Assembly (NCBI GenBank): GCA_008632985.1
Contig: QPGO01000039.1
Span: 310,001-374,000 of the forward strand
Length of the DNA stretch: 64,000 nt
Source: Psammoneis japonica
Lineage: Eukaryota
Direction: 5' to 3'
This document shows positions 16,530 through 61,331 of this stretch, piece by piece. The notes beneath the pieces were generated by a model. That model did not search any database. It was not told the DNA's origin and saw nothing but the letters and a program-made list of their open reading frames with translations. Both the position numbers and the translations under genes were made by a program. Position 1 is the stretch's first letter. Each line of letters opens with the position of its first letter.

Positions 16530-16559
16530 TAGAGAGTGGGTTTGGGAAGGAAAAAGGAT

Positions 16560-17968
16560 TTTCGTGCAGATGAATGAATGCCACCACATGCATGCGGAAC
16601 ATGAATGCGGTGCCACTCATCCACTCTAGAGTTGGTGCTTGCAGTGCAGTGTTGATTCCTTGATGAATTGCTCAGCACATTTAGTCCCTTCGCACTTCAT
16701 GTCGCTGGCACTCATTTTGCATTTCCCAGTTGCGCCATCGCTGCACAACGAATCATTGTGAACAACCAAGAGTGGGAGGCTTCGTCTGGCTGGCATCATC
16801 ACAAATGCAGACAGCTGCAGCAGAAGGGCTTGTGACAAACCTGCGACACCCGTCTAAAGTCGACCATGAAGCAACGCTCCTTCAGTGACAGTGTTCCAAA
16901 CATCCATGCAGACCATGTGGTGGAGAGTGTGTTGGCTCCCAATGACACTGATGCCACTGTTGCAACACACATTGTCTCCAATTTTCTTGTGGCAGATCTC
17001 ATCAGCAAATTGCCTCTCCAGTCACATGCTTGCAGCAATGGACATGATCAGGATCATTTTCAACTCTCAAGACAAATGCCACAGGCAAATGGAAATTTTT
17101 GCCCAACAGATGATGTCCATGAAGGGTGCAAGCATGTGGATCACATCACAAATTTTGAAACAATGGCAGCAAGTCAACAACCAAGATTTGGCCTTCTCTG
17201 CCGGCGAGTGTGCATTTCCTTGAATGGTGCTTTGTGATGTTGTCTGACACAATTTGGTGAGTTGATGTCTCTTGTGTCCATGCACTCCACAGTCACCCAC
17301 AAATGATTCCAACACAATCTCTGCTGGCCTCCTGTTCTTTGCTGCAACCATTCTTGGCTCACACTCTGTTTTGGTTGTTTTCTGCCTCAGATCATTGACA
17401 ATCACAATGTGGTCACCTTGGTCCAAGTGCTGGCCCTGGGCAGTGCCGGTTGACAAACCGGGTCCACACACCAGAGTCATGAAGAATTCTCACAATGTGC
17501 TGCTGATGGGCATTGCAACTGCAAATGCACTGGCAACATCTTGCCCATCCATGGCATCCATTGTGGATGACAACTGTCAAGTCAGCCTTCGAGCATTTTT
17601 GTGGTGCTTGCTTGGGTGGATGTCGGACTTGTGCAGCGTGTTTTGCTGGTTTTGTGCTCTTGTGCCTGAGCATTTTGTTGTGGTGCTGTGTTTGCTGGTC
17701 ATGTGCTTGCAAATCTTTGGGCCTCTGTGACCTCTGTCACTGGTGCTCCTCACACCTGACTTGAGTGCCAAGAGCTTGTCATTGGGGCACTGCAAGCTCT
17801 GGCACTTGCAGCGCCACACCTTGGGCAATTGCCAGTCACTTTTAAAGACCTCAACATGGGCACTGAGCCTCATTGGCTTGCTCAACTTCCTCAGTTGTGT
17901 GTCGGCAGGAGTGCTTCCACCCCTGACTTTGGACTCAAATCTTCATGGAATCTGGTCACCAACAGAAC

Positions 17969-18005
<37 letters not shown>

Positions 18006-18400
18006 CTGGCGGCCAAACAAAGTGATTGGCTCTGACAAAAGCGGCAGCTGCAAAACACATGCAATGTGGAAATGACAAATTTTTGAATGTGATGAAAATT
18101 CTGATCAAAGAACACCTGGCAAAAGATGCAGTCAGCACTGGCCACACTTTGCCAACATGTGAGTTTTACATCTGCGTGAGTGCTGCAGTCTCACACACTT
18201 AGAGGAGTGAGGTGGGGCACCACATTCTTCTTTCGTCCCACCATGCTCCCGATGACACCATTTGTGCTCCTGCTGTTACAACACATGTTGTTTCCAAATT
18301 CCTTGGTAGATCTCATTGGCAAATTGCCTCTCTGGTCACATGCTTGTGACAATGGATTTAGTCAGGATCATCTACAACAACTGCACTCTTTCAAGATAAA
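16560..18400. mobile_element. Unclassified decayed repeat block with an internal dispersed duplication
   Basis: TpA-depleted. 16930-17065 aligns with 18240-18380. (CT)n at about 17969-18007. Confidence 0.6.
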
Positions 18401-33959: not shown

Positions 33960-34199
33960 GCAAAGATCAGTTTAAAAAGCTCTTGCGGTACAGTAGCATC
34001 CGTAGCTCTTGTTTGCCATGCGGCTCGCCGGATTCAACGTAGGGTTGTCCCGTCGTCCCGCCAAGAAACAAGTGCCTTCCCAAGAGAACCGCGCGTCGGG
34101 TACCGGTAGTACTGGCTTGTGCAATGTCTAATAAAAACAAACACACAATGGTCATTTAGTAAAATAATAAATTCTAATAAAGTAAATCTTAACAGATGC

Positions 34200-36854: not shown

Positions 36855-38246
36855 ATGAGCTCACCATCAGCGCAAGAGGAACAGAACGTCGACGTTATTA
36901 TCGTGGGAGGAGGGCCGTGTGGTTTGACGCTCGCAAAGGGATTGTTAAATCAGGGATATTCGGTGAAAATCATTGAGAAAGATCCTGTGGATTTGAAATC
37001 ACACGACTGGTCCAAGGCATACTCGTTTCGTATCGATGTCCGAGGTCTCAACCTGCTCAAGTCGCTGGGTATTTACCAAGAATTAACAGAGTTGGGTGTC
37101 AAGTCCGAGGGATTCAAAGGCACAAAGTGGATGCCAGACGGTAGTTTTGATGTGTTGCCACCGAGAACTTTGGGAAGCGTGGCGTACTGGATCATACGGC
37201 CCAAATTCCTCAAGCTGTTGAGTTGTGCCATTCCCAGTGAGACCATAAGTCATGATGAAGTAGCCGATATTCGATTTGACGACGGCTCCGTGTCGGTCTC
37301 GACTTTAAATGGCAAGTCATATCGTTCCAAGTTTCTTTTTGGTTGCGACGGAATTCATAGTCACGTCCGGTCGACGCTTGAACGTTCTGTAGACCCCGAT
37401 TATAAAATCCACAAGATTGACTGTCCCTCTTCTGGATTTGCCTACAGAGCCACCTTGTATGATCCGCCAGACTCTCTAGACCCTGATGAGATCTACATGA
37501 TTATTGGAGAAACGGGTGACAAACTCACATTAATGCCCGTTGGCGGCGAGAGAGGAGTCGCGAGGCCCATTGCGGTTGCAAAACAATCTACGTTTCGAAT
37601 TTTTCAAATCAAGAATCCAGACGATCTTTACGATACTCTTGATAAGGAGTTTCCTCAACTTCAAGTGCGAGAACGACTGAGCGTTAAATCCGCTCAAGCT
37701 TGGTGTTGCAGTGAAGGGTCGACGTTTCCTCGCCCTCGATGGGCTGGCAAGGCGTGTGGCGTACACAAAGGGGTATTTGTGTGTCTCGTGGGAGACGCAC
37801 TGCATTGTGTGCCTCCGGATTTGGGACAAGGCGTCAATAGTGGGTTTGTAGATGTGCAAGTCATTCTTGATTTCATGAAAAATCGACAAGAACTCGCACT
37901 CTCCTCCTCCAACGTGGACGCCCTGAACAATGAGCTTGTCTCGGAGGCGCGTGCCTTGTGCCAAATTCTTCCAATCGGCATGCCGTATCAATACAACCAA
38001 CCCTTTTCGATTCACAAGGTGCTTTTCTTTGCTGATTTCATGGCGCGCTTTGCCCTCCATCGGCTCGTATCCAACACCTGGTTCCACGCGCCAGCCATTT
38101 TAGAAATCCAAGACGATCCACCCAAAAAGTACACTACGATTCTAAAACATCATTACCAGACGAGACGTCGCATGTTGGCACTCGTCGGATCGATAACGGT
38201 AGTAGCGATAGGAATCTGGAAGCGGTGTGGAGGACAATCTAGATAA
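36855..38246 (+). CDS. FAD-dependent monooxygenase (kynurenine 3-monooxygenase-like)
   Basis: DVIIVGGGPCGL, GCDGIHSHVR and LVGDALHCVPPDLGQGVNSG motifs; C-terminal TM; likely start MSSPSAQ. Confidence 0.9.
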   Translation: MSSPSAQEEQNVDVIIVGGGPCGLTLAKGLLNQGYSVKIIEKDPVDLKSHDWSKAYSFRIDVRGLNLLKSLGIYQELTELGVKSEGFKGTKWMPDGSFDVLPPRTLGSVAYWIIRPKFLKLLSCAIPSETISHDEVADIRFDDGSVSVSTLNGKSYRSKFLFGCDGIHSHVRSTLERSVDPDYKIHKIDCPSSGFAYRATLYDPPDSLDPDEIYMIIGETGDKLTLMPVGGERGVARPIAVAKQSTFRIFQIKNPDDLYDTLDKEFPQLQVRERLSVKSAQAWCCSEGSTFPRPRWAGKACGVHKGVFVCLVGDALHCVPPDLGQGVNSGFVDVQVILDFMKNRQELALSSSNVDALNNELVSEARALCQILPIGMPYQYNQPFSIHKVLFFADFMARFALHRLVSNTWFHAPAILEIQDDPPKKYTTILKHHYQTRRRMLALVGSITVVAIGIWKRCGGQSR

Positions 38247-38753
38247 ACGAAGTGGAGACTTAAGAGGCGGTCCGAGCACTCTTATAACTACGATACCGTC
38301 AGGTGTTAGGGTCTACCGAGTACTGTAGGTTGATTGAAGCAATTACTTCATCTTGGATCCAGATCCATTTGGAAAATCCCTCAAGCCACTGCGCCACCGG
38401 ATCCTAGCAGGCCCAACCATCACCGGCGGAAAAAAAGAAGGGCTCAATCGCATGGTGACTCTCTGCGTTGATTTCGTTCCTCAGACGTATAAGAGTAAGG
38501 GATTGGTTATTTGCCTCTGGGCCACGTTCATTATGATCTATTTCGCCTATTGTGAGTGTTATTGGGGGTGGGGGTTGTAATTCTTTTCAACAAACAAGTC
38601 TCTTCTGACAGCTGCTTTTCACACCTCAACTGAACGTAGACTGGCAGTTTCGTTTCGACTATGAGAATTTTCATTCATACGAGGCCCGCACCAATTCATT
38701 TCCAGTGTCGTAGTAAGGCTGCTTCGATTTCTATCTTTGAGGTCCCTTCATGA

Positions 38754-42250: not shown

Positions 42251-43670
42251 CCTTGGTTTGTTTGGTGGCTAGGTTATTTCAAATTAATGAGATGATTGTT
42301 GTTGTGTTTTGTGTTGTGTGCTTGACGCGCCGTGGCCGTGGGTCGTGGGGCAATGGGTAAAACGCGATCGCAAAGTTTGCCGCAGTTTTTCAATCGTGTT
42401 TTCCGCATCTCAAAAACACGGATTTTTTTCATGCTCGGCTGGCTTGGCCAATCAGATTTCGTGACAAAGTCCCGTTTCATCATCATTGCATCATCATTGG
42501 CGCAGTCCACAACTCGCCAGCATTGCCATCCATTGCATCTCCTCTGCAGATTGTGCACTCAGAAGCGCACAGGCATTTCCACCCAATGCAGCTCTTTCAT
42601 GTGCAGAAGCGACCCTTGCAGCACTTTGCAAGTTGACTGAGGAAGATGGTGTGCTTCAGCTGCTGCTGGCTGACAATTGCAAAGAGGGAGCTGCAATTGG
42701 GTGCAGCATTTGCAGGGACCAGGTGTCACAACAGCGAGGGCTGTGGATGCACGCTGTCACAGTGTGATGTGCAAATGTGCGTGTTTCTTTGAGGACATGT
42801 CCTCACTCCAAGGCTCCCCTGCAAAACTCCAGCTGCTCAAGTGTGAGTGGGTGCAAGCAACTTGAAAGCTGTTTTGACTGTTTCCAAGAGCAATTTGGCA
42901 GCACTTTGGTGGCACTCCATGCACGCCACTTGTTCTTGTGCAGAATTGCACATGAAAAAATGTCGTGGAAAATGAGAGCAGCAAAGAGGCAGTGCAAGCA
43001 GGTCAGCCAACAATGATGAGAGCAGTCGAGAGATGCAATGGCAAGTGGTGGTGCAAAGTTGTTGCAAAGGGCAAAAAAGATGCACGCCAGTTGGCAAACA
43101 TCTTGCAACAATGAAAAGTGGTGCAAACCAGCAGGGGGTTGAAAGTTGCACACTCACAACAAAAACCAAGGTGTTGCCCTGCTCTGCACTGAATGGCGCA
43201 AGCAAGGATGACAGCACACTTCACAAGTGCAATGTGGCGCATCGCACACACATGCACACGTGCATGCTGTGTGAGAACAACTTGGGATGCAGATCTGGAA
43301 ATGTGAAGGGAAGACATTGCACCGCTCCTCTGGGCACTTGGAGGGGCCTCATTTCCCTTGGTTCACACAGCAGCATGGGCAAATTGAGGTGGCAATTGAC
43401 TGCAGCTTGAGTGTGACAACAAATGCTTTTTCTCTTGCATCCACAGAAGCAGTGACACAAGAACATGTGCAACATTTCCAGTCTCTTGCTCCAATCTGAG
43501 GATGAGCATCTGTGAAAAATTTTGCAAGACCCAGGTTGAACACCCAACCACCCTCCCCACATGAGTGCCACACAGCAGTGCAGCCACACCCAACAACCGC
43601 CAGCTCGTTTGCACTTTCATCAACAGACAGTTGTCAATTTTCACACATCATGTGCCTGCACAGTGCGCTG

Positions 43671-44017
43671 TTTGCTGATTTCATGGAGGGCTTTGCCCTC
43701 TGTCATGTTGCACCCAACACTCAGTTCCACACACCAGCAATTGTTGAAATCCAAGACAATCCTCCCAAAGAGCACACACTGCAAGATTCTAAAACACCAT
43801 GATCAGATGAGTTGTTGTGTGTTCTTGGCACTCAGAGTTAAAGCTTGAGGGGCTGTCTGAGCCGGCATTCAACAGACCAAGAGCATTCAAAATCAGTCAT
43901 TTGCCAGACTTGTGTCCAGCACAGTGCCTTGAGGTGTCACAAGTGATGCAAGTCAAAAGGCAAAAAAAAAGCTTCATCTTGCATCCAGATCCATTCAGAA
44001 AATCTCCCTCAAGCCAC
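43671..44017 (+). pseudogene. Mutated duplicate of the 3' end and 3' flank of the monooxygenase gene
   Basis: 43671-43833 aligns with 38028-38183, and 43972-44017 aligns with 38346-38390. Confidence 0.85.
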
Positions 44018-44789
44018 AGTGACCTGTGATGCCACATCTCGGAATGCCAAGATCCATCAGTGGCGTGCCTTTTTTGTGGACTGGAGCTTCATCATTGAGA
44101 TCAAAGCCATCAAGCAGTGACTTGAAACTGCAACACTGGATCCCAGAACATGGAAACACGTCAGTGCCAGCATTCAAAACCCGAGAAATTGAGTTGGACA
44201 CACTTTTTTGTGGACCGGAGTCATGTGTGTCATGTTGGTTTTCTCATCTTCCAATGCGATTCATCACAAAGATCAAAACCAAGAAGCAGTGACTTGAAGC
44301 ACATGTGACCCAGCATCAATTCTGCCAAAATGGGACGCAAGCTTAAAATTTTGTCATGCATGGGAAATGGCGCAAAAAAGGTTGTCATTTTCGAGAATCC
44401 ATGATTTGCATGAAGACGCGTCGTCAAGGTGCGTGGGACGGCTCTGTTTGCAAACAAGATGCATTGGGTCCATGACAGAGGTGTGCCAACCTTGGCACCA
44501 CGAGCGAAAAAAGAAGATGATGTGCCGCGGCACAGGCAAATCCCATCTGGCTGCATGCTTGTGATGCATCCATGTTCCATTTCCTGTTGCATGTCGAAAA
44601 GTGTGAAGGGTTCACAAAGAAAAGCAACTGGACTGCAAGATGCTGATGAAGGACAAATTGGTTGACTCGAGCAACGATTGAATTCATCTTCGAACATGAT
44701 GTTGCGGTTTTTCTACGGCATCAATCGGATCCTGGATGGTGCTTGAGAGTGCAGCTGCATGTGCCCCAGTTCAAATCAAAGAATGTTTT

Positions 44790-45640
44790 AAAGCCTGCTT
44801 GCAAGAAGGATGAAATCGCATCCCTCAAGTCCGATCTCCCCATCTGTGTTTTGAGCAACGATGCACAGCTCCTTGTCATGCGCAGCAGCTCGAGAATCAC
44901 GAACACTGAATTGCGAAACAGCGTCTTCGCAGCCATCCTTGTCTGTGTCTTCCATCTTCTGAAAGTCAGACAGTGGGGAGTTGTTCCCTGGTGTGCCAAA
45001 CCTCACTGTTTCCAAATCGATGGTCCTCACATCAAGCTCTTTACTGCCATGAATTGCAACGGTGAATCTTGCGTTTTTCCCGTGCCTGATGAAGTCAGTG
45101 GCATCCTCGGCTGAATGTCTGTCCTGACAGTGAGCTTTTCTCCTCAGTGTTTGTAGCACACTTGTGCCCCTTCATGATCAGGAACGTCATGGCATTGGCT
45201 TCCCGCATGGCAATGCGATCCCCATGTCCCAACATCACCATCTTGTTAAAGCCAGAAAAGCAACTTGCACAGGCCTTGTTGCGACTTCCTTTAACGTCTT
45301 GGCCAAGTTGCATCCATTCTGTTCCATTGCACTCGAACATTGTTGCACGCCCTCTTGTCGGCAATTAGAACATGCAACAGCAACCCGCTGTCCATCACTT
45401 GAAAGTGACAAAGCGGAAAAATGGCCGTGACATGGCAAACGTCGATCGAACAACGGTGAGCCGACCCTTGTCCACGTCGAATTGTTCCACTCAAAGACGC
45501 ACGCGCTTTTCCTCCCTCTTGCCCCAGACATGACAATGCGGCTTCCGTTTTGGGACAAAGCCATCCAATCTCCAATGTCGAAACAAGTGTCAAGCTTGAT
45601 CCACATCGATTCACGCAATTTGAGCTGACCCAACTTGTCT
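44790..45640 (-). pseudogene. Decayed FG-GAP-like propeller gene fragment with a C-terminal Dx(D/N)xDG-containing domain
   Basis: MALSQNGSRIV, ACVFEWNNSTWTRVG, LSLSSDGQRVAVA, FECNGTEWMQLGQDV, VAIHGSKELDVRTIDLETVRFG...DTDKDGCED; frameshifted. Confidence 0.75.
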
Positions 45641-45649
45641 GTCAGCCAT

Positions 45650-46260
45650 TTCTTCCGGGACAATCCTGCCATGGCCAAGACCTTTCCACCATCTTGACAA
45701 CACTTGTGAACCAACTGCAGCAATCCTGGAGTGTCTCTCCCTCATCTTGCTGAATGAGCATCAGCTGCTTCCAAGCACTGACCGCTTGCACATGCGCGGA
45801 CCTTCTCATTTGCATCAAACAGCACCAACTTGAGGATGTCCAACAGTGCTGCCACATCCCACTCCTTCACAATCTTTGCGAACCCCGCCACTCCTTCAAG
45901 TTTGTGGTGAACAGCCTTGGCACACTGTCCCACAATGACATTGAATGCCTTCACCTTCTGCATCTCATAGACTGCATCTTGTTTCATGCAGTGATTGCAC
46001 TGCTTCCCCCAGATTGCCTTGTTCTTCTCTGATGCATTCTGCCCAGCTGGACACTCAGGCTCCACTGGTTTGTTCTCTTGCCTTGGCAACACCAATGCCT
46101 CCATCTCTGGCCCAAACACTCTGCCAATGCACTCGCCAATCTTCTTTGTGGTTTCTGTGCATCCATCTGTCTGTCGTCCTGACTTGGCAATGGTGTCATG
46201 CACCAACTCCTTCAATCTTTTGTGTTCCCGCACTCAGCTGCATCTGTGCCCATGGCTCAA
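45650..46260 (-). mobile_element. Copia-like gag N-terminal fragment (third family)
   Basis: TETTKKIGECIGR...KAFNVIVGQCAKAVHHKLE...DVAALLDILK. Confidence 0.7.
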
Positions 46261-46269
46261 CCAACTGAT

Positions 46270-46760
46270 CTCACTGACCAATCTCACCAGAGCAACACCA
46301 AACAATGCAACCTAAACCACACCTTCCTTCAGCAGGCATTGACTCTTGCAAATTTATGACCATCATGAGGAGCAGACACGCGGATGGGCATTTCTGTCGG
46401 ATGTCATCTGCATCTCTTGGCTCAAGTGTGTGCTCTTTCTTCTTGTGAATCAAGATCTTGTTTTGTGCATGAGAGTCAAGGCTTGCCATCAGACATGAAC
46501 AGAACATAAAATTGTCCTTGTTTAAGAGGCAGGCTCTCTCATGTTCCTCAATCTGCTCCACAGTGAGCTGCCTGCATGGTTCAATTATCCATGAGATGCT
46601 TTCTCTCACTGTTCTTCTGTTCCAGGTCAAGATTGACATCAAGGAACAATTCTTTTCTCAAGAAATCCATTCTTTGCCATGCGCTGTACAACACATTTTG
46701 CTGATTGTGGCATGAGCCGTCTCACAAGAACGGATGGACATGTTCAGAGCAAAGGCTTTT
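46270..46760 (-). mobile_element. Copia-like gag fragment (fourth family)
   Basis: QLTVEQIEEHERAC...DNFMFCSCLMASL...PSACLLLMMVI. Confidence 0.6.
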
Positions 46761-46999
46761 TACCACATCTTCCAGAACACCATCCATGTTTGTTTCCCCA
46801 ATTTTCTGTCAAGTCGATTTTGGGCAAAAAGCGTTCATTTGGCAGGCCAGAACGCTTCTTGTGTAAAGAATGCATGCGCGAAAGACTACATTGGCTGCCT
46901 GCCAGGAGAGCTGCTGAAGATTCGGTCTCCACCAACATCATCATTGTCACCAGTGCAATCTGCTCATTGTTCTGCAGCTCACCCGCCAAGAGGACCGAT

Positions 47000-49900
47000 T
47001 AGAAGTGCGCACCAAGTAAACGGTGGAAGGTGCGTTTCAAGACGTTTTCTCTAACTGGTCGCCGGGCCGCTAGCCGGCGGCAAAAGGGCGTGTGTTCATC
47101 ATTGACTTCTCTCCTGGAACGAACAGGCATCTACAGCAATCCTTCATTGGAGGAGCTGAAGGCTGCAACGGTGCACCAGGAGCTGCACAAGTCAACTCAA
47201 TGTACAAAAAAACATTGCTTTTTCTCCATGGTTGGATGAATTCTTTTGCCATCTTTTGTCTTTCCTGACTTCGTCTCGATTCCCGAAGAACAAGCGTCAT
47301 GATCCCGATCACCAAACAGCCGATTTGCAATCAGTCGGTAAAATGCTCCCACCCACTTTCGCTCTCTGGTGTCACAATGCGAGCAGAGTCTGTCTCGACA
47401 TTGGTGGTCGGGCTAAGCGGCGCTGCCGGCACAATCAACGATGAAGGGATTTCCTGTTGTCTGGCACGACGCTTGTGCAGCTGAAGGGCCACCTCATTCG
47501 AGTTGAGACTCATGTGATGGAGGCTTGCAAGCGGGTAAAACCTTGCACCCACATTCAATGTGTGAATGATTGCACGCTGCTTTGGCCATCAACCCCCAAG
47601 GGTCCGGAAGGGGTCGCCCTTCTTCCGAATCCAGACGCAATTTCAGCACACGTCCGAACTTCTCGGGGTCGCTCAGCAAATGTGGAAGACGTGCCCCGCG
47701 TTCCTCTCGGAATGCATTTGTCAATTCCTCATGCCACCACCAGACATCCCTCGGAGTGGTCTCGCTGTTGAGAGATTTCGCATCGGTTTCTCTGTCTTCG
47801 TTCACAGTGACCATGGTGGGAGCAGGCTGCTTCTGGTTTTGCTTGTTCTTGCCACTGCTTGCTTTTTCTTGCCTTTCTTCTTGTTTGTTTTCATTCCATT
47901 GTTTGCACCGTCGCACTTGTTGCCTGCATGATCAGAGATTGGGTGCCCCGCTTAGGAGCGAATGAGCCATCGCCTCGAAAAAGTGGCCAAGCACCTTGAG
48001 ACCATGCCAACCTCCTTCGGGTCGCAGGTGCCAGACTTGTCATTTTCCGCATTGTCAAATGAGACCAATCAAACTGGGACAAAACTGACCGACACATGTC
48101 GGCCACAGTTTTGTCCGTCCCCAAAGCGACAAGAACAATGACCTCGCAGGGAGTGTTTCCATCCCAGTCCTTGAGCTCTCGAGGGTCAAACATGGGATGA
48201 TGAGCATCTGAGGTTCGCCGTCAAAATAAACCCGGTGATTTGACTGGAGAGTTGGGAAGTTGTGAACATCATCCGCAGACAATTGTTCTTGTCTGAATTG
48301 CCCCCCATCATACGAAGAAGCCTCACTTGGTTTCTTTCGTCTCCTGCGAACCCTTCGATTCTCCCAGTGGCTCCTTCTGCCATGTGAACCCATCCGGACC
48401 ACCGATTTCGAATCAAGAAAGATGTGGCCTTCACAAGGTCGGTGTTGTTGTCAAAAATCCCTTTCTCTTTTCTTGAATTGGCTGTCACTCCCCAGGGTGT
48501 TCATCCAGGGGTCTTGAAGGACACCAGACGTTTTCTTCCCCGATGCCGTCTTGATGTTCTGATGAAAGGGGGGGGTCGTTTGTCGACAGATCCTGTCGAA
48601 TGATTCCATGAGTTTCGTCTGAACTGGAATTTGAGAGTGCAGGATCTGACAAAGGCACTTGGCATCTACAAAATGCTCGCCATTCATTCGAAGGTCCTTT
48701 TCAACAAGCTCTCTTGCATTGACAGCAACCCGTGAGCAAACGTCATGTTGGACGGAGACAAGGTTGCGGATTCTAGCTGCTTTGAAAGAGATCCAATCTT
48801 TCCGCAGTGTTTGCCTCATGGATTTCTCCATGGAAAGCTTCCTCTCCATCGTGTTGACTCGGTCTTGCGCCGTCTCTGTGTCCAACAATTTCTTTTGTTG
48901 TGTTTTTGTTGTTTTGGTCGCACTGTAAACTGCAATCGTCAATCGTGCGGTGTCTTGGCCTCGCCAATTTGACAAGGCGCCTGGACGTCACCGCAAACTG
49001 GGAAATTCCGCAGGGAGAAAATGGAGAATTCTCTACACATGAAAACATTGACATTTTGCACATGACACACAATGCCACGAATTGCTGAACAATTGCACGA
49101 TGCACGTGCCCGAAGGGAGATTGTTGCTTCGGGCACGAAATTCGAGCTTCGTGCACGTAGAGACCGTAGAAAACACACCAGCATTCGAGAATGTCCGATT
49201 TGTGTAGATCACGTGCATGTGGCACAGCACCACAGAGGTCATTGATGAAATTGCTGCAACGACTCATGCGACCACAATGAGATTTTCAATGCCATGTGCC
49301 ATGTAGAATGGACATCTGCACGAAGGAAGAATGTTGCTTCGGGCAACGACATTCGACCTTCGGGCACGTGCATTGCGCAATTGTTTTGCAATTTGTAGCA
49401 CACTGTGCGTGATCCTTGCTGTAGAGCCTTGTGACAAGCTAGTTCTGTGCATCCACGGGTGGGCAGTCACACAAAATGCACAAATGACTGCATGCCCGAA
49501 AACCGATTGGGCAACGGTCATTTTGGCGAGGAATGCCAGTGCATTTGTACAATTTGTGTAAAAATGTTCATGATGTACAGAGGGGCGCGCGGTTGTTGCA
49601 AACTCGGCCCATTTTTCACTCCAACGGTCAAAATGCTTTCTCAAGTCACGAAAATCATCAAACAAATTACATGGATCGAAAGTTCAGAATCAGAGCTAAA
49701 AATCGACACAGGTGTGTCATGTGCTGCCTGAGAGTCTTCATGCCTAAATGAAGCCACAAAAGCAGTGCGCGCGAAACCAAAAATCGAGCGAAACGCGATG
49801 ATGAGACGTCTCATCCCGGTTTGCGTGGGATTGTCATCGTTGCTCTAATTCGCATCTTGCTCAGATCATCCTCAGTGGACATGTGAACAACAGCAGCTTC

Positions 49901-52900
49901 AGCAGCATGAAAAATGCCTCATCTGGGTGATTTTCATCACCACGAAGCACTCCATTGTGGACGCATTCCAGGTCTGGGTGGGACCTCGCACTGCTGAACT
50001 GTGACATCGACAGTTTTTTGAATCACATCGCATGTCGCGCACGTAGATTTCTACGTGATTTTTTCTGCATTTTGTGTCATTTTACGGTGCACTCATTGAG
50101 CGATCCGTCCAACAACTTTTGACATTTTTCATTGCAGCGCGATTCTATGATGTCTTAAGAATCGTGCAGGGCAGGCGCATTGGCAAAAACGTCGAGTGGC
50201 AAGAGGCATGATTGTGCCACACAAACTTGGCCGTTTGTTTGATGTTGAAGACAAATGCACCCATTGACTGAATTCTCGCACTGCGGAGCTCGCACGTAGA
50301 ATTCCACGGGCCCAATGTCACACGGAGTCCCACCCAGGACTGGAACCCGTCTGTGGCGCCGCGTGAGCTCACGTGAGTGAAAATGTGACTCGACGTTTGT
50401 GAGCCGCCAATGTCTCAACAACCACGTGAACAACAATGAAACCACTGCACAGCACTGCTCTGCATCATTCACAGAACACGTTTGTCAACTCAGCCATGCG
50501 ACAGAAGCCATTTTGAAGGATGAGAAACGTTTTGCATCAAGGCACTTGAGTCATGTCAAAAGCACAAAATCTTCTTCACAGTGCAACAGTGAACATCCAT
50601 GCGAGCACAAGAGCAACCCAAAAACCCCAACTTGGCATTGTTCTTCATTGTCCATGCAACACATTCGGCCTCTTGCCAGTGTGATGCAACCATTGTTGAA
50701 GGACGAGACACATTTCGCGTCAAGAGGGTGCATTTGTCGTCGAAATCATGGTGTGTGTCAAAACTCATTCAGAACTCCACGAGGATTCGCTGCCCGAGAT
50801 TCGGGCCTTCACCGGTTGAGTGTTCAGACTCAACATTTTCATTGATGGTTGGCGTCAATGGTTTGCCGCCGACTGCCATTGCAAAAAGGAGATTCTCATG
50901 GTCAGCTCCATTGGCGATCCATCGCTAAAAAAGCGCGCGAAAAGTGCACTTTGGTTTGCATCAACCCCACGCCCCTCTGTGTGGTTTGTCTTTTAAACAA
51001 TTGTCCTCACTTTGTTTTGGTGTCACAATGCTGAACATTTCTTTCCTTTGGTTGTTCTCCTGGCACACATTCCTGCACAATTTTGTGCACAACCTTTTGA
51101 TGGTTGTCAACGCTTTTGTTCGCCTAAAACAATGTTCATGAATGTGATGGTTTCCGTTGGTGATTTTCCGTTGGCGATTGCATGTGCTGCCTGCTGCCAC
51201 GAACCAGCAGTGTTTTGCCCCAGACGAAAAACATCACTCTGCATCCACACGGCACACCGCATCTGCGCAACTCGACCTTTCTTGTTGCTTTTGTTGTTTG
51301 TTGTTTCTTTCTCTCTTCTAGTCTGCTCAGGTGTGATGCACCACATCCAATGGTCCTTTGCCAAAAGGACCGCTCCTCTTTCATTGTTGCCTTTCTTTCT
51401 TTTTTTCTTTTTCACTGTGTTTTCCCATTCGGCCCATCAATGCTTTTGTGCGGTTGGCGCCGTTGCAGCTCTGCATCTGTCGTTTTTTGCTCTTTCTTCT
51501 TTCTTTCTTTCCTCTTGCTTCTTGCCATCTGCATTTTTGCTTCCTCTCTCTTCTTTGTTTCATCTTGCTTCTTGCCATCTGCATTTTTGCTTCCTCTCTC
51601 TTCTTTGTTCTCTTTTTTTTCTTGCTGCCTGCATTTTTGCTTGCTCTCTCTTTTTGTTTTCTCTCTTGTTTCTTGTTTTCGTCGCTCTCTCCTTTGCCCA
51701 TTCTCTTTCTTTTTCTCATTTCTGCCAATCCTTTCTCTTTGTATTTTTTTGTGTTGTCCCCATTTTGACGTTTGGTGCAGTGCAATGAGTGGCCACTGTG
51801 GTGCCCCCACCCGTGTCAATCGCTCCAAGCGGCTTTCTCGATGGGGCCAACCGCCAAAGAACCGACATCTGGGTGCGGCTTTTGTTTCAAGTCCTGCTGC
51901 TGCTTTTGGCCGTGCAAGCCTGTCTGCCGCTGGCACCCCCTCGACAGACACGAAAGCACCCTCACTTTGTCGTCGTTCTTGTTGGAGTGACCCCAACCAA
52001 GTCAAGGCAACTGCTGGGTCTGCCACTGCTGGTTCCACTGCTTCTGCCAGCCCATCTGCCAATGATTCTCCCACAACAGCCAGCAGCTCTGCATCATCCC
52101 ATCGTCGTTCTCGCTGGAGTGACCAACACGCAGCTCCCGCCATTTCCAGGCATGCTGCTGCTGCTTCCCTGGCGTCCACTGGCCCATCTGCCGCTGGCTC
52201 TCCTTGATGTTGACCAATCCCACAGGACACAATGGTGTTCCGCTTGAGTGACCGACATGTGGCTCCCGCCATTTCCAGGCATGCTGCTGCTGCTTCCCTG
52301 GTGTCCACTGGCCTGTCCACCGCCGGCTCTCCCGTGATGGTGACTGACCCCGCAGGACACAATGGTTGTTCCCGCTTGAGTGACCGACACGCAGCTCCCG
52401 CCATTTCTGGGCATGCTGCTGCTGCTTCCCTTGTGTCCGCCAGCTCATCTGCCGCCGGTTCTCCCATGACAGCGACCAATCCCACAGGACACAATGGTCG
52501 TTCTCGCTGGAGTGGGGCTCCCTGTCGCTAGATGGCCCATCTGCAAATGGTTCTCGTCATTTCCATCGGTCTCCAAAACCCAACGTCTGAAAACAACATG
52601 CCACCATTTCTGGTTCATCATCCAGAGGCTCCTCCACCGCTTCTCGTTCGGTTCCATCGACCACATCTACTCCTGTCAGGTCTGCCAGGTCCATCCCGAG
52701 CCATCGTGATTGCAGTTCACGCACTTTGAGGAACACTCTGTCATCAAGGCATGACCTCCCACCCCCTCCTGTTGGAAACAAGCGATCTTCCTCTGGTGCC
52801 TTTACGTCAAGTCACCGTTGGAAGCGCAGTTGTCGAGTTGATGTGTCTGCTTCTGGGTGCGAGTCTACAACCTCAAATTCCTCGTTGTCCACCAGATGCA

Positions 52901-54200
52901 ATGGCAGCCCACCTGGCCAACGCCAGAATTCTGCATCCACCTCTTCCTCGCCCATTTTAGAAGGACAGTTTGGCCCTCCTGTGCATGCCGGGTCATCCTT
53001 TTTTGGTGACGACGAGTCTTGCACATTTGATCCTCTGGAGGTGGATGACGACTCCAACGATTCTACCGACTCAGAAGAATCCGAACCTCCCATGTTGCAG
53101 GCCCAACAACAGGGACATCAATCTCTGTTGGAATCTCATGATGCAAATTTCAGAAGGTGCTGCCAAGTGATCGATTGCTCTTCCTCCGAAAAGCCCAACG
53201 TTGCCTGCGAGGACATGTCCGTTGCTTGTTGCGACGAAGACACAGCGCATTTTCGGAAAGCACTGTTTTCCATGCAGATGCAAAACAAGGACCCACCCTC
53301 CACTGCACTCAAAGCGAAGCATCCGGGTGAGCACTTTGTTCTTCCGGATCCTGACATGGCTTTGCTGTTTCCACGTGGGCACACTGGACTGGCTGCAATG
53401 ACCAAGCCTCGCTGCAATCCCCATGGTGAGGTTAGAATCGAGGACCAAACTTGCCATCTGTCGGAGGCCAATCGTCTTGGTGTCGATGTAAAAACTTTGG
53501 AACCGGGTCGACTGCATTCCGCAGTGTGTGGCGATCAATGAGTGGTGGCGGTTGTGGATGACGATGAATGGTGTTCTCGCATCCGCTCACCAGGTCTAAA
53601 GCAAGTTTGGCGCGATTTTTGCCTTTGAGAGAAACCCGGTTGTCCAGGTCGACATCAGGTGCCCGTCACCGGAGAACAAGGAAATTGTGAAGTGACGGTT
53701 GGATCCAGTGGCGACCACAATGGAGCAAGAGGAGAAAACGGCATGTCGGTGCCCCAGTTCAACAAAGGCACCAAGCGCTGTGCACCTCCAATGGCCAAGC
53801 CAGGCAAAGCGGATGCGTCAATGGCTTTTTTGTTGCACTTGCTCTTCAATGCGAACTTCGGCCATGGGCGTTCTTGGTTGTGGAAGCATCTCCGGCAAAC
53901 AAGGGAATTTGTGCTCATGTTGCCGCTCACGAACCAGAAGGAAAACATCTCCAGCATGAAAGCAGCAGCATTGGTGCGTTGAGAATCAGTTTCCGAGAAA
54001 GAGCCAACGGCGTGCGTGCGGTGTTTGTCAGAGGAAAAAGGATCCGTGCTGCCTCCTCTTGTTGTGACGAAAGATGTTCATGGATTTGTCGGGAACCATT
54101 TGAGCCAATCTCAATGTCAGGTTGCTGGCATCAATGGTTTGATTGTGAAATGCATTTGTCACCAGTGCTTGCGTTTGCAGTTCTGCCACTGTCTCCGGCA
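47000..54200. mobile_element. Decayed TE-associated accessory ORFs (minus about 47.1-48.95 kb, plus about 51.8-54.0 kb), possibly part of the adjacent MULE
   Basis: Broken protein-like frames almost devoid of Tyr; TpA-depleted; no domain recognised. Confidence 0.45.
52105..52520 (+). repeat. Tandem repeat, about 130-bp unit, just over 3 copies
   Basis: GCTCCCGCCATTTC recurs at about 52133, 52262 and 52393; encodes SRWSDxHAAPAISRHAAAASL. Confidence 0.9.
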
Positions 54201-54242
54201 ACAAAAACCATCATGTTGACATTCCACCGGTGTGCCAACCCT

Positions 54243-57125
54243 TTAAGCTCTTTCCTGCTGACGGTGACACTCACAAAGACACCCCGGAACTCTGTGTTGA
54301 TGAACAACACAAAGGCAACAACTTTCCCCGAGGTGGGCTTTGTTGGACCCAAACGCATTGCACGCCGGCAACGGCGGTGGAACGGTCCCGGGGAATGCTC
54401 CAGAATAATCTGGCGGGATGCCTTGCAGGACTGTCAGTTGAGACGGCATGGCCGATGCTTGAAACAAAGCAGAAGGAGCAGACGGAACAATGGGCCATCC
54501 CGCGGGGTCAATGACAGGTGGTCTAACTGCTGGAGTTGTTTGGCCGGCATGGCCACTCTTCGATGGTGCAGCCTTGCGTCGCTTCTTGGATGCTTCTTCT
54601 TCACAAGCTTTGATGTCAATCTTCATTTGGTTGACTCTCTCTTGGCGGGCACGTTTTCTGGTGGGAAGCTTGGTTGACCGTGATTGGATGACATCTGCAC
54701 ATTGCAGGATGGCGGCATGTGGGTCATTCATTTTTTTTTAGAACTCTTCGCAGTCTCCGATGAAGAGTTTTGCACCATCGGCCGACTCTGTCACTGTGAC
54801 TTTGCACAAACCATTGGTCAGTTTGTGCAGCAACTTGTGGTCTGAAGCCGATTCTCCATGGGGGAACCCTTTCAACGCATTGTGGCAGCCCATGATTCGA
54901 ATTTTGTCAATCATGTCCCCAACGCAGTCTTGAGTGTTGACGAGACACCCGCCTTCGTATGTTGCAATGTCGCGCTTTGCGTCTAGTCAGCCGATGTCTG
55001 CCAACACATCGTTGGTCAGCGCTTTGTCTTCGTCCAACATCCCACACCTCCGTGAAACAGTGGACCGCTCTAGTGTGTGGGTGTGGACCATGGACGGAAG
55101 GGACGCATTCAGCACACGGGAGAGGGTCACGCCAAGGGGAATCAAGCCATTGATGGACTGCGAACCCTTCATTTTGAGATTCATCCTGTGAAACATCATG
55201 TGTGAGCATGGACCCAAATGATCAAAACTGTCCTGGGCAACAACAACCAACTTGCCTCTCGTGAGAGTTGTTCTGTGGAACCAAACCGGGCTCCCCGAAA
55301 GACGTGTAGCGCCAGTTCGCGAAGTCGTCGTCGTTGATGTGCTGTTCTGCAAATGCATCCGCCAATTTGGTTTCGCCTGCCTTCCTCCATGACTCGAGCA
55401 CCATGCCAGACATGGCATGGAACAACTCTGCAGTTTTGCACCGGTGGAGCATCCTCACATCATGGATGGCAACTCTGGACAGGAAAGTCGTGTCCTTCAT
55501 GCACTTCTGGCATTGTCCGTTTCCTTGCCTCATGAAATCTGTGCAGAACTTTTGGAGGATGTGAGGACAGCATGTGCCTCTGGGATTGTCAGGGTGCAAC
55601 AGCTCAAAAGCACTCGAGAATGCTTTCGAGTGATCCGAGCAAAGTCCGCCTGCAAACTCCAAGTCGGTTGTCCCAAACAAGTCCGACGCCGCCTTTTCAA
55701 AGCACAGAACATCAACACGGCACCTTCTTCGTGCTCTCCGGTGGTCAAGCAGCAGCAAATTGGCTTGAACGTGCTGGAGCAGCAATGCTTTCCAGTTTTC
55801 TCTCGTTTTAAAAAGTCACTCACGCCGAATGCGATGAGAACAAAGTCATTGCAGACGACTCCATGAGTTCCATCTATTGTGCCAACCACACGGTGCTCTG
55901 GGTTGCGACAATCACAGATGTTTCACAACAGACCTGGGGAGGAGAAAACAACTGTGTTGTCCCTCGCTCCCAGGAAGGGACCCTTCGGACCTTTTCTTTT
56001 TCAGAACCTGGCTTCTGACTTGCCTTGTAGTTCGGTCAACCGTTGCTTGACATTGGTTGGCAAGTCATCCGGCTGGAACAAGCAGAACATGTCTGTGTGT
56101 GGCACCCCATTTTTGCTGTGACGCTTGCCTCTTACACCCCTCGCGTGCAGCCATTTGGCCTTTTCTTTCATGTGGACTTCCAAAGAAACGGGTTCTGCAT
56201 CGAAACCCTCTGGAATCCGCAAACCCCATTTCCAACAGTGGGACACCAGGTCTTGTGTGTACGAAATTTTGGTGTTGCATGCTTTTCTGTCTTGAAGAGA
56301 GTTTTCGGACGCAGGGTGTGCCGTTGTTGCCACCTCTCTTCATCTCTGTGTGATGCAGTGGCAAATCTTGTTAGAAACCTTGTCGCGGAGATCCTGCATT
56401 TCGAACAACTCGGACACAGACGGATCTTCCGAATTTGAAAAGTGGTCCACAGTTTTTCTCTGCATGTCCTTCGGCGGTGCGTTCGGGTCGCTTTCCATCA
56501 TGAGCTGCACATGCAGTTTTGCCACAGGAGGAAGACCCCTCGAGCCTTTTGCGAGAATGTGCTCCCGCCAAGTTTGGGGTTTGTGACCATCATGGCCACA
56601 TGTCACTTCCAACTTGCAGGGGCCAGTCGACGGTGCCGCGACAATGTTTGCTTTGAAGCGACAACCCGGTTTTTTGCAGCTAAATTCGCTGACCACAGGA
56701 ACAGAAGGATCTTTCTTCTTCTTGAAATTGTTGTCATTGCGGTCGGCTTTAGCGTCTGGGCCTAGAAATTGTCGGGCGGCTGCGAAGGAGGGGAACAAAT
56801 CTCCAGGGTGCGAATCAAGAGCAGGGCTAGAATCGTCAGCTTCGGCCGAGCGAGATGCCATGTTGGTTGAAGAATTGGGCACGCCGCCCTTTTTGACTTG
56901 CTCCGCTTGAACAGCATTTGGAGCATGGGATGGTTCTTTTCCCGGCCAGATGCACTTGGCTCGCTGGGTCACAAAGTCGTCACAAACCGAGGCAACGAGT
57001 TGCTCGGCTTTGGGAGAGGGCATGAGCTCTGCAGCATCTGTGACAAAGTCGACTCTCTCCATGAAAGCCTTGGTTTGTGGAGAGAGAAAGTCTCTGGGCT
57101 CCGTGGCAGCCTTGCATGCCACCAC
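54243..57125 (-). mobile_element. Decayed Mutator/MULE transposase
   Basis: N-terminal GDLFPS...CKKPGCRF...HDGH finger; catalytic-domain motifs TIDGTHG, PICCCLTTGE, CSDHSKAFSSAF...P...TCCPH and PQNNSHER; frameshifts and stops. Confidence 0.8.
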
Positions 57126-59334
57126 ATTGAGGCAGGCATCCCGGTTGCCACCTTCTCGACCCTTGTGCCAGGAGATGGCAAGGGTGGCTTCCCACCATCA
57201 GGCATGAGGGACCAAAAGGAGCCGAGTGCAAACACAAACAAGAGACCATGCAACATGGTCGGCAACGAAGAATTGTGGGAAGGATGCTCAAAAGGTGAGG
57301 CCGAGGCCGATGCGGACAGGGAATCGGGGCCACGTTGGAGGGAAGTTTCCCGCCAAAACTGAAACTTCCCGCCAAAAAGCCAAATCCCACAGAAAACCGT
57401 TGTTGCAGCACATTTTCGACAGTTCAAACAATTGCTCTGTAGAGTCACTGTGTTTTGCATTGCACGGGAAATTTTGAATCGAGTCCGTTCGGGAAGATTG
57501 GATTTCTCCGTCCTCCTAAATGAGCACAGGAAATGAGCGATTGAAACATCCAAGTAGACTGCGATTTGGCGAGTGGCCATCAAAACAGAAATGCCAATGC
57601 TGTGGTTGTGCAAAACCGTAAATTGTCAGACGGGCGTCCAGCTCGTTCAAAAACAAGAGCCAGCAAACTCGGACCCTCACTCATTTCTCACACTTTCGAA
57701 AGAGTTGAACGCAAAGCCGAAGCTGCAGCACCATGACGACATTCAACAAGAGTGGAGCCAATGGCAAAAGGTGAGAAGGGAGTGGGGAAGAATCTGTTCA
57801 TTGTGTGATTTGCAAATGAAACGCTCACTCTGTCTTGCAACCATTTGCATCGAACAGACCCGCAGCCGCGTCAAAATGGAGGATTGTCAAGATCTCGAAA
57901 GTGCTGAAGCGACCCAGGCAAAGACCAAGAGCAGCCATGGCATTGAGACGTTTGTCGAGGGACTGTGCAGGATGGAAGGTGGTCGCAACGAAGAACAAGA
58001 AAGCTCTGGAGGTCTGAAGGCTGCATCGGCAGCGATCGGCTCAAGGTTTGATTTTGGGTCGCCGGCGAAGACATGGGTGCATCCAATGCAGACCGGGCAT
58101 TTGTGTGTGATGCATTGGCAGTTTGTGCTGGGCAAGGAGGAGGCTGGTGTGCTTGTGATTTCAGCGGCGACGGTTGTTGTTGTCATGGTGAGTGCATCAT
58201 TTTTGGTGGTTTCTGCGCGCAAAACAAACGTGACTTGTCTCACACTCATGCCTGGTTTCTTCTTGTCCAAATTTTCAAACATTTGTGCAATGACCAAAAT
58301 GACCCATTTTGTCTTAATTTGTTGATTGTTGTGACAGTTCACAGTTGCACAAATGACCATTTCGCAGTTGCACATGACGAGCTTTTCAGTTCATGTCGAC
58401 CGCCTCGACGAACAGAAACATTTGTTGAACAGCCCCCATTTTAAAACAAGACTGAACAATCATGTGCAACATGTCGTGCCAACCACGCAGGAGTGTGCAT
58501 TGTGCCGGCATGACAATTTGGTGCAAGCACGAACAGAATGACCATTTATTTCTTCTAAGAAACCAGACAAAATAAACTGAAAGGACTGAGGTGAGCGCGC
58601 AGCTACATGAAGTTTTGAGTCCCGCCTGCTCGGGACTCGTTGACGCTTCCATCTGGACACCGCGGTGCACCGTGGGAAAAAATGACGACGGGTGCGACAA
58701 TGGCATGCCGATGCAAGTGCCTTTTGCTGGCAACAATGTTCACTGCACCTGATCAGTGTTTACAAATCACCTGTGCCCAATTGGTCCACTTTGTGCATCA
58801 GGTGCAGCCGATTTGATGAAATGGCACCAAAACAAAGAACGATCCACGCAGCGTTCGATGACGCGACAAAGCCACGGAAAACGTCGTCTCTTGTTGGGCA
58901 TTGGGGCAGTGCTGATGCTTGGTTGACGGAATTGAAGCTGCAGGGTGTGGACAAAGATGTCACGGTGACACAAATGAACGAGAATTGAAAAAGCATCCCG
59001 AACACGGACCCCATCTAGAAGCTCCACGACCCGGTGCCAAGGTGCGTGTCGTGAGTGTGTCGAAAAGCGTCAAGATCAAGAACAAGAAAAGCAATCGCAT
59101 CTCCAATGCTTGGCATCTCTTTTACTTTGTGTCCCCGTGCAAATCGTTGGTCAAATTGCCATGTGAAATCCCGCGGCATTCTTGGCAGCAAACGCACAAT
59201 GCGAGAAAGATTGGTTCTGTGTCAGCACTCACACACGCCAACCCGGCAACACTGAGTTCCAAGCTGCCCAATCTCCTCAACACCAACCTGTGAATGGAGA
59301 AGAAGGGGGAGGAGACGACAGCACTCGTGTGCAC

Positions 59335-59550
59335 AAATCTGGCGTTGCCGAGTCCCAAGCTGCCAAATCTGCCCAAGCTGCTCAACACCAATCTGGCATT
59401 GCCGAGTCCCAAGCTGCCAAATCCACCCAATCTGCTCAACGCCAATCCGGCATTGCCAAGTCCCAAGCTGCCAAATCCACCCAATGTGCTCAATGCCAGT
59501 CCGGTGTTGCCGAGTCCCAAGCTGCCCAATCCACTCAATGCCAACCTGTG
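59335..59550. repeat. 54-bp tandem repeat, 4 copies plus a partial upstream copy
   Basis: GCCGAGTCCCAAGCTGCC at 59347, 59401, 59455 (variant) and 59509. Confidence 0.95.
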
Positions 59551-59980
59551 AACAAAGGAGGACAAGAAGAAGAAGAAGGAGGAGGTGAGAGCAACAAGTC
59601 ACACGGAAGGTTGATGCACTGGAGTCCGAGGTGGCTCGCAAGTTTCTCAACATTCCAAGCGGTCACGTCCGAAAAAAAAAAGTGCCACTTGCCATCAAGA
59701 GATTGCAAAACCACTGTCTGGCAAATTTTCTGACCCCAACCTCCTCCTGGATTCATGTCATCCATCCCGATTTTTGCCATGAGAAGTCGAGACGACAGAT
59801 TGGACATTGACGGCTAAAAATGCAGTGTGGAACCGCAACAAAGCGACAAGTGCCTAAAGCTTTCAATGACGAGCAAGAAAAATGCAAAACAGCAAGAAAG
59901 TGTTGCCAGTTGCTTGCGTTCAAGGTGAACATCATCATTTTTCACGGCAGCAAGTTGTGAGCTCCACAAATCACACACTG

Positions 59981-60585
59981 CTCAGAGCAGAAATCAGCAC
60001 AGACAAAACCAGTGGTGCTGCAGGAGCTGGTGCCGCTGTCGCAGGTTTCCTCCCACTTGACACCAAAGCACACTTTCTGACACATGACCCCTGTTTTCCA
60101 CTCTTCACGCGCGTGCGCAGAACTTGACGCTCATTCGCGTGGCTTCATTCCTCAACTCTCCCTCTTGACGGTGATTGTTTTTGTCACGCGGCGGGCCTCA
60201 TCATCACTGAACGAGGGGGTGCCCGGGTTGGCCGTTGTCCGGGGAGACATTGGGAGCAATGCTGCCATCAGGTCGGGTCATTGGGGTTGTCTGTCTGCCT
60301 GCCTGCATGAGTGTGGCATGCACGCGGTTCTCACGCGCCAATTTTGGCCATGAAGCAGACAGAAGGGCGACTCGAACCTGAGGCCGCAAAGGAAGGTTGG
60401 GCTCACAACCACTCAGAGCAGAAATCAGCATGGACAAAACCAGTGGTGCCACAGGAGCTGGTGCCGCTGTCGCGGGTTTCCTCCCACTTGACACCAGTGC
60501 ACACTTTCTGATGCACAGTCCCTGTTTTCTGCTCTTCACGCGCGTGCGCAGAACTTGACGCTCATTCACACGGCTTCATTCCTCA
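59981..60585. repeat. 174-bp direct repeat (59981-60154 and 60412-60585)
   Basis: Direct alignment by eye. Confidence 0.95.
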
Positions 60586-61331
60586 GCCACACTTGCCATT
60601 GTCTGCTGTCAAATGATGCACACCACAATCCATGTTGTCAATGAAATCGACCATCCGTTGCTTGGCTTGATCCAAAAGACAGTGCATGACACGCAACAGC
60701 CCCACCTCGATTGATGCAGAAATGTCGGCCGATGACAATGGCTCAAACATGTCGACATGAAACCAAGAGCCGGTGTTCCTCGTCAGGGCTTTGAACATGG
60801 TCGAAATGCTCCCTGCACAAGTGTGTGAAACGAGCGCATCGATTGCATCGCGACAGCACACGAAAAAGAGCAGCGGATGGTGATGCAGCTGCAAAATCCA
60901 TTTTTTTTTTTGCCTTTCGATTGAGCAATTGCCTTCAAACAAGCGATGAAAATAGTTTCCATGTGATGGCAGAAACCATTCTAAAGCACTGCTGTTGTTG
61001 AAAAGGTTTGGCAATAGCATGAAATGCCGTTCCGATTCTCATGGTGAGTGGCGTTCGGAGGGTGTGTGCGCATACGTGACTGAATGAGTCCCGCCTAACT
61101 TCATGCAGCCGCGCGCTCGCCTCAGCATAGCCCGCCCGGCTGGCGGTCGAGCGCGCGACGCGCGCATCTGGAGATAAAAGTACATGATACTATCACTGAT
61201 AGTCAATCTTGCCAATCGCTCACAGTGGAACAACGAACAACGGAACATCGCATCGACGAGAAAACGAGATGACCCTGTTATTTCATAAGAGAAGAGATTA
61301 TCTAAAAGACAGAGAGATATTGACGTTATCA

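Follow-up and report, generated by a model that had tools for sequence, protein, structure and literature searches.

Genomic setting and TpA-poor domains

The window analysed here is a stretch of 64,000 nucleotides from Psammoneis japonica (C37:310001-374000; C numbers are contigs of the genome assembly and L numbers retrieved loci or copies) in which ordinary host genes alternate with DNA that is nearly devoid of TpA steps. The nearest named relatives of its malate dehydrogenase are from pennate diatoms, at about 69% identity. We are concerned with how the loss of TpA relates to the loss of CpG in such DNA, especially in the block at 47000-61060, and our overall conclusion is that of a real and quantified difference between two losses that have separate chemistry, share their targeting, differ five- to tenfold in rate and together form a rough clock. 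Depletion is expressed throughout as observed over expected (o/e). Gene-rich segments of the window have a TpA o/e of 0.54-0.58 and a CpG o/e of 0.95-1.02, and a two-state segmentation on the TA rate delimits four TpA-poor domains (o/e 0.02-0.10) that are separated by these segments:

6689-13846, TpA-depleted domain (TA o/e 0.08, CG 0.45) that holds the comparison block 12300-13800
15552-18166, TpA-depleted domain (TA o/e 0.10, CG 0.50)
34191-36604, TpA- and CpG-depleted domain (TA o/e 0.02, CG 0.19) that holds the comparison block 34600-36400
42286-60952, continuous TpA-depleted domain with 104 TA (o/e 0.09) and 800 CG (0.68)

A first-pass annotation of this DNA had noted 0 TA and about 20 CG at 55321-55740, in what it called a MULE block, and a loss of both dinucleotides in the two comparison blocks. 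Direct counts bear this out, with 0 TA and 20 CG at 55321-55740 (o/e 0.00 and 0.705), 9 TA and 8 CG at 12300-13800 (0.076 and 0.113), and 3 TA and 12 CG at 34600-36400 (0.024 and 0.121). The full block at 47000-61060 has 86 TA and 681 CG (TpA o/e 0.10, CpG o/e 0.75), with CpA/TpG up to 1.5-1.9 and TpA down to 0.1; its CpG content is thus not intact, lying about 25% under gene level. The complete absence of TA from 420 bases, where composition predicts about 24, the gene level about 13 and the block mean about 2.6, is ordinary for this block (P about 0.08). While the depletion itself stands, its start at 47000 does not, as the domain extends over 42286-60952; likewise, the MULE-like portion is confined to 50978-58382 and the rest of the domain is a mosaic of other insertions that differ in age, with CpG o/e values of 0.19-0.95 per kilobase. 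In the three other TpA-poor domains, six-frame read-throughs gave matches to 0 Pfam families in 18 frames.

TpA is lost ahead of CpG in copies of two MITE families

The proposal that TpA is lost faster or earlier than CpG was checked copy by copy in two families of miniature inverted-repeat transposable elements (MITEs) with undamaged members, and in both of them TpA goes first, by a ratio of about 10 in the young and 5.3 in the older family. The latter, family A, is a MITE of 697 bp that duplicates 4 bp of its target and exists in undamaged and damaged form; our set comprises 34 copies and leaves out two duplicates (L108, L096), three sisters (L106, L113, L115), the copy used as reference (L097) and four loci without a match (L117-L120). 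Among these, 14 undamaged copies have lost 19/514 TA and 17/512 CG, and 20 damaged copies 595/686 TA and 383/699 CG, from which we estimate a TA:CG rate ratio of 5.3 (with site effects, 19 copies, L107 left out). Across copies this ratio ranges from about 1 to more than 20, and one exposure per copy is rejected with a likelihood ratio (LR) of 73.4 against a simulated maximum of 39.0 (0/200 simulations), though by a much thinner margin without the three most extreme copies, L095, L121 and the window's own fragment (LR 32.2 against 30.8, 0/150). Ancestral composition does not explain the overdispersion. Illustrative copies are L095, which has lost 23/29 TA and 0/27 CG, and L081, which has lost 40/45 TA (89%) and 15/42 CG at only 3/483 background differences and a terminal branch of 0.003.

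When a tree of family A is made from the 381 columns that contain neither TA nor CG, its damaged members are interleaved with the undamaged ones. Unrelated copies agree in the outcome at 61% of site pairs and sisters almost fully (28/28, 23/23 and 15/16), which shows that each copy was hit separately. In a set of 16 damaged copies, the longer the terminal branch, the more CG has been lost (rho 0.76, p 0.0007). No such relation holds for TA loss (rho 0.38, p 0.14), on account of its saturation. Of the young copies, L121 (C196) has the lowest TA:CG ratio; it is a MITE with TA-normal flanks that is split by a 4.7-kb insertion.

Family B has 1580 candidates, of which 40 were scored and 30 loci returned; we used 29 of these (L161 duplicates L162) together with L041. 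Losses per copy are graded, from 0 to 24 of 26 TA, and begin at the same sites; an all-or-none mode of damage as suggested by family A was therefore dropped. Seventeen damaged copies have lost 230/440 TA and 39/466 CG, compared to 4/337 TA and 6/362 CG in 13 undamaged ones, which gives a rate ratio of 10.2 with a profile interval of about 7-15. Two copies have lost no CG at all, namely L158 (11/26 TA, 0/28 CG) and L180 (14/26 TA, 0/27 CG), and the window's own copy at 49958-50351 has lost 20/26 TA and 3/27 CG relative to the undamaged copies. TA loss in this family also correlates with background differences (rho 0.66). Six copies retain all 22 scored TA between flanks with a TpA o/e below 0.1 on both sides, so that the process either takes time or is intermittent. 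Undamaged MITEs with TpA-depleted flanks on both sides were seen at L082, L097, L172, L174, L175, L177, L181 and L186, and the flanks of L097 have lost CpG too.

CpG loss is nested inside TpA loss

The first-pass annotation had described the two losses as decoupled, which goes too far. Plotting TpA against CpG for C37:210001-434000, cut into 448 windows of 500 bp, gives an L-shaped scatter: 85 of the 87 windows with a CpG o/e below 0.4 have a TpA o/e below 0.2 and none of them reaches 0.45, whereas 51 of the 165 windows with TpA below 0.2 still have a CpG o/e of at least 0.6. At other loci (232 windows), all 48 CpG-poor windows are TpA-poor as well. CpG loss is nested inside TpA loss and confined to TpA-poor domains, where TpA and CpG o/e correlate (rho 0.57, n=173); in undamaged copies both losses are near zero, and across copies they rise together (rho 0.55 in family A, 0.65 in family B).

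At L107 (C95:310514-311157), a domain edge crosses a MITE, with TA loss starting from position ca. 185-250 and CG loss from ca. 336, so that TA loss extends about 100-150 bp further out. An island at C40:46500-48000 (L095) has TpA o/e values of 0.16, 0.15 and 0.00 at CpG values of 1.17, 0.99 and 1.04, which makes it the clearest example here of TpA being lost while CpG stays. Old divergence with little CpG loss is seen in a 1.9-kb duplicate pair on C37 (248964-250843 and 238907-240833) that differs by 5.7% transversions; its damaged copy has lost 63/73 TA but 24/83 CG, with 11/70 in the reverse direction.

Elements of the block and their age

The following elements of the window were characterized (strand given where assigned):

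13116-13321, fragment of the 697-bp MITE (family A), older, within the 12300-13800 comparison block
43671-44021, plus strand, old degraded copy of 38028-38393, the source being the end and downstream part of a gene for an FAD-binding protein
46763-47914, stretch that is single-copy in the assembly yet TpA-poor (1 match in the genome) and differs from a public-run contig
49958-50351, MITE of about 392 bp (family B), partly damaged, with terminal inverted repeats at 49960-49984 and 50327-50351; best polarised measurement within the block
50978-58382, minus strand, young copy of a MULE-like (Mutator-like element) DNA transposon common to C234, C39, C287 and C34
54552-57092, minus strand, broken MULE-like transposase delimited by tblastn with 18 homologues of the sister-family protein
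55321-55740, test segment of the first-pass annotation within the transposase (0 TA, 20 CG)
58586-61125, further element with a 29-nt inverted repeat (arms 58586-58614 and 61097-61125, 90% complementary)

Besides the MITE, the block thus holds other inverted-repeat elements. The arms of the one at 58586-61125 differ at one TA and two CG steps, and its right end lies just beyond the TpA-poor domain.

The MULE-like copy carries 41 private transversions (0.7%) over 6109 three-way columns. A star-tree fit, which is approximate and has one class at its boundary, assigns to these columns about 179 ancestral TA and 378 ancestral CG, of which the window copy has lost about 84% and 28%, respectively. 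The inferred ancestral o/e of about 0.5 for TA and 0.9 for CG resembles that of host genes, and the pattern can therefore not be put down to composition. Independently of any model, 5 of 6 sites in 55321-55740 that are TA in the sister copy are now TG/CA, and 20 of 29 sites that are CG there are retained, with 8 now TG/CA. No intact copy of the window's MULE-like element was found in our searches, and none of the 25 longest inverted repeats, out of 305, pairs 50978 with 58382.

The label MULE-like for 54552-57092 seems fair from sequence comparison. The window's transposase pieces and the sister open reading frames have no MULE match in Pfam, and a word-indexed homologue search returned nothing, but a full HMMER search with a sister-family protein found 185 homologues. 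PF10551 (MULE) is matched at E<=0.01 by 14 of 29 homologues scanned, with 2 above the cut-off, and 18 homologues align to the window at 54552-57092. Their tyrosines fall mostly opposite Cys, Phe and His, with Cys or His at 93/281 in these non-independent alignments. Elsewhere, a MULE-like frame in L071:1171-3216 (C1) is open over at least 681 codons and nearly without tyrosine, and a TpA-depleted MULE relative in L009 (C75) is interrupted at 500-1500 by a kilobase with TA o/e of 0.65-0.83 and CG o/e of 1.26-1.46, probably a young insertion. At L026/L027 (C146, C104), one side has CTGG as its 4-bp target duplication and the opposite side CCAG, which are the two outcomes possible for one TA-containing word.

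The comparison material is older. The degraded copy at 43671-44021 has lost 12/13 TA and 15/15 CG at 9.6% transversions, and the family A fragment at 13116-13321 has lost 11/13 TA and 22/23 CG with background differences at 10/173. For 34600-36400 there is no close copy, and the only match besides itself is one of 87 bp at 76%. The block at 47000-61060 is TpA-poor yet CpG-rich mainly because its elements are young while the comparison blocks are old.

Sequence context and specificity

Relative to gene level, TpA survival depends strongly on the flanking bases, from 0.00 in ATAT and 0.02-0.06 in other RTAY to 0.43-0.48 in YTAR, whereas CpG survival varies far less (0.41-1.12). A>G is favored in T-A-Y (52 vs 13 in CTAC, 53 vs 20 in ATAC, 72 vs 32 in TTAT). 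Among A:T sites, changes are nearly exclusive to TpA (230/440 TA vs 19/2717 other A:T sites in the 17 damaged family B copies), so that TA steps change about 50 times more than other adenines. CG loss exceeds other C>T changes about 19 times in close family A copies (152/349 vs 25/1702) and about 15 times in family B, where C>T elsewhere amounts to 5/1768. Only trinucleotides that contain TA or CG fall below 0.65, with ACG at 0.36, CGA at 0.39, CCG at 0.48 and CGC at 0.62 as opposed to 1.67 for CAG and 1.34 for CCA, and the loss is therefore CG-specific rather than of CHG or CHH type.

Nine tests detected neither strand runs nor a coupling of strands between TA and CG changes (all |z|<1.3). 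An apparent correlation between strands at the level of copies (rho -0.46, p 0.03; 22 copies, sisters among them) disappeared once sisters and site bias were removed, and was rejected. A weak secondary A>G change outside TA, seen in damaged copies of families A and B, shows about a twofold preference for sites before T (9/765 vs 10/1952; 18/548 vs 19/1133), and AAT>AGT recurs among the differences of the public run X1 (window positions 46127, 46958, 47330 and 47497). The opposite direction of change, the flank dependence, the overdispersed ratio and the absent strand coupling all support the earlier proposal that TpA loss is a separate reaction.

Mechanism and alternative explanations

We consider it probable that the same silenced domains undergo two mutational reactions that differ in speed. 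After insertion, each copy independently has its TpA turned into TpG or CpA, one site at a time, fastest at ATAT/RTAY and slowest at YTAR; by about 1% neutral divergence, 70-90% of this conversion has taken place. In the same domains, the rate at which CpG becomes TpG or CpA is 5-10 times below that of TpA change but about 15-19 times that of other C>T. The CpG arm would be deamination of 5-methylcytosine (5mC) laid by a DNMT5-type enzyme, with which the CG specificity is compatible but which it does not prove. The TpA arm may be an enzymatic lesion, for which adenine deamination in DNA, giving inosine that is read as G, appears the likeliest form at a little under an even chance. The responsible enzyme might be recruited by the same heterochromatin, with CpG loss not being required. 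As to candidates, a profile search found 27 cytosine-methylase matches in the genome, and C76 encodes Tudor, a weak PF00145 match and SNF2 in the order that PMC9998398 describes for DNMT5b. A search with PF00383 gave 9 deaminase-fold matches. Several cytosine-methyltransferase copies, some with stops, lie in TpA-depleted DNA (o/e 0.03-0.15) at L136 and L137 (C301, C297); these are possibly transposon-borne or duplicated genes that were themselves hit.

Several points weigh against this picture. The two losses share boundaries and correlate, and the shared targeting could be the work of one machine. Background changes are higher in damaged copies (49/4485 vs 8/3432), which confounds age with a locally raised mutation rate, and A>G spills outside TA there (19/2717). 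L121 has lost 15/44 TA and 11/42 CG, a ratio near 1.3, and the fragment at 13116-13321 shows relatively more CG loss. Family B consists of the best 30 of 1580 candidates, picked by likeness to an already damaged copy, which cuts off the heavily damaged end of the family, and the B-subfamily copies of family A were scored against a single reference copy. Moreover, 5mC does not always lead to CpG loss, given that an alga with a DNMT5 candidate has methylated cytosines that are not hypermutable, according to PMC11884799.

Such correlated losses in the same domains would be expected from one coupled pathway, in which the T:G mismatch left by 5mC deamination enters error-prone patch repair and TpA change is a by-product of methylation. 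The polymerase involved would be polymerase-eta-like, of a kind that favors A after T or A. This pathway would also account for A>G outside TA exceeding C>T in damaged copies (19/2717 vs 5/1768) and for the raised transversions (25/4485 vs 5/3432), and it can live with low CG loss since a repaired 5mC lesion leaves no CpG scar. We nevertheless think it improbable in view of the missing strand-coordinated runs and TA-CG strand coupling, the 50-fold preference for TA over other adenines, and the C40 island where TpA is gone and CpG whole. Slightly less improbable, though still unlikely, are two reactions of which the TpA lesion falls on thymine, with a modified T in R-T-A mispairing with G: TpA is self-complementary, so the A>G bias in T-A-Y reads equally well as T>C in R-T-A. 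A search of the genome found no Tet_JBP match, but its control was silent too and the result is weak; the Bigelowiella natans authors favor adenine deamination, likewise as a proposal (bioRxiv 10.64898/2026.01.13.699255).

That the elements simply arrived TA-poor and CG-rich and suffered only CpG decay afterwards could seem attractive for the MULE-like element, as no intact copy was found and the least damaged one is TA-poor. This explanation is already refuted by the polarised copy sets and retains next to no probability: undamaged MITEs of both families have 43-51 TA in 700 bp, with almost no loss among the 26 scored TA, and the ancestral o/e values from the star-tree fit and the Cys or His residues opposite homologue tyrosines, non-independent as the alignments are, point the same way. 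Hardly more credible is a sequencing artefact from modified bases at TpA or CpG that were miscalled in the assembly. Modified bases can give motif-specific miscalls in long reads, and the platform of the assembly is not on record. However, the same ancestral context resolves differently between copies while sister duplicates agree fully (28/28, 23/23), and contigs from run X1 carry TG/CA at the same steps, with the opposite outcome at some sites. X1 is the one public run in which the stretch was found, and no RNA run was listed for it. Over 46763-47914, the X1 contig differs at 26 letters; 22 of these differences are listed, and 17 of them, six TG/CA swaps among them, affect steps derived from TA or CG. 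The contig looks like another allele or strain that was scarred independently. Run X1, whose platform is not on record either, is possibly the assembly's own sample and thus not independent support. Further copies of this TpA-poor stretch, which has one match in the genome, may have been lost or left unassembled.

Returning to the two reactions, we tentatively entertain a stronger version that we would rather bet against than on: a methylation-independent genome defense, shared with Bigelowiella, whose targets are the TpA steps of newly silenced DNA, where adenine is deaminated or thymine modified, and which acts before, and sometimes without, CpG methylation. The reason to consider it is the C40 island together with the copies that have lost 11-14 TA and no CG. 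The scars would then represent two separable layers of silencing and could order insertions genome-wide.

A rough clock of silencing and its consequences

The suggestion that the ratio of the two losses could date insertions holds for the rank order of damaged copies, in which CG loss follows divergence (rho 0.76), and fails for insertion dates. L098, L102 and L123 are nearly undamaged despite terminal branches of 0.026, 0.079 and 0.025, and L081 with a branch of merely 0.003 has lost 89% of its TA; a simple dating by the ratio was rejected on these grounds. Because old copies among genes are nearly untouched and the ratio varies from about 1 to more than 20, no insertion date can be had, and the clock starts at silencing, not at insertion. 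The TpA/CpG pair may thus be read as a crude clock with two hands that shows how long a copy has been silenced, with TA as the fast hand that is useful to about 1% divergence and CG as the slow hand, both for rank order only.

In genomes of this kind, divergence overstates transposon age if TA and CG columns are left unmasked, and a dead element passes for an intact one because its TAA/TAG stops are gone. So far, one preprint has described a targeted A:T>G:C mutator acting on eukaryotic DNA (bioRxiv 10.64898/2026.01.13.699255). Undamaged reference copies show that in a diatom this process leads CpG decay 5-10-fold, within shared domains and at a variable ratio; this narrows the mechanism and makes a dedicated enzyme testable against a methylation by-product. 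Our searches of an open-licence literature library listed no paper on TpA hypermutation in diatoms.

Comparison with known systems

Like repeat-induced point mutation (RIP) of ascomycetes, the process described here wrecks repeats by dinucleotide-specific transitions and spares genes, but its direction is opposite, since RIP makes TpA from CpA while TpA falls here. Unlike in RIP, 13 near-identical copies of family B and 10 of family A are essentially untouched and a stretch that is single-copy in the assembly (46763-47914) is hit, so duplicate pairing does not look like the trigger. The CpG arm resembles the DNMT5-methylated transposons of diatoms (Hoguin et al., PMC9998398) in being CG-specific and restricted to transposon islands of an otherwise normal genome, and a candidate with DNMT5b-like domain order lies on C76. 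Decay of methylated CpG nonetheless covers the slow arm only and cannot give TpA -> TpG/CpA.

The closest parallel is the TpA-only hypermutation of integrated DNA of nucleocytoplasmic large DNA viruses (NCLDVs) and virophages that Mettrop et al. (bioRxiv 10.64898/2026.01.13.699255) report for Bigelowiella natans. According to that preprint, rates in the NCLDV region are 6.85e-7 for AT>GC and 3.9e-9 for GC>AT, implying a TpA process separate from C>T decay; the rate per generation is raised about 1000-fold, in some lines only, and an ADAT-like deaminase is proposed. The terms "CpG", "5mC" and "diatom" are absent from its main text. These rates were measured directly, whereas ours are inferred from copies, and our graded series indicates a rate that is high relative to background only. 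The Psammoneis host sits in a different supergroup branch, its targets are DNA transposons and gene duplicates, and its domains are near saturation and show strong CpG loss as well. Both systems share the change of TpA to TpG/CpA, the restriction to foreign or silent DNA, and a patchy distribution in TpA-poor, TpG/CpA-rich clusters that spares genes, as seen here in domains with an o/e of 0.02-0.10 amid gene segments at 0.54-0.58.

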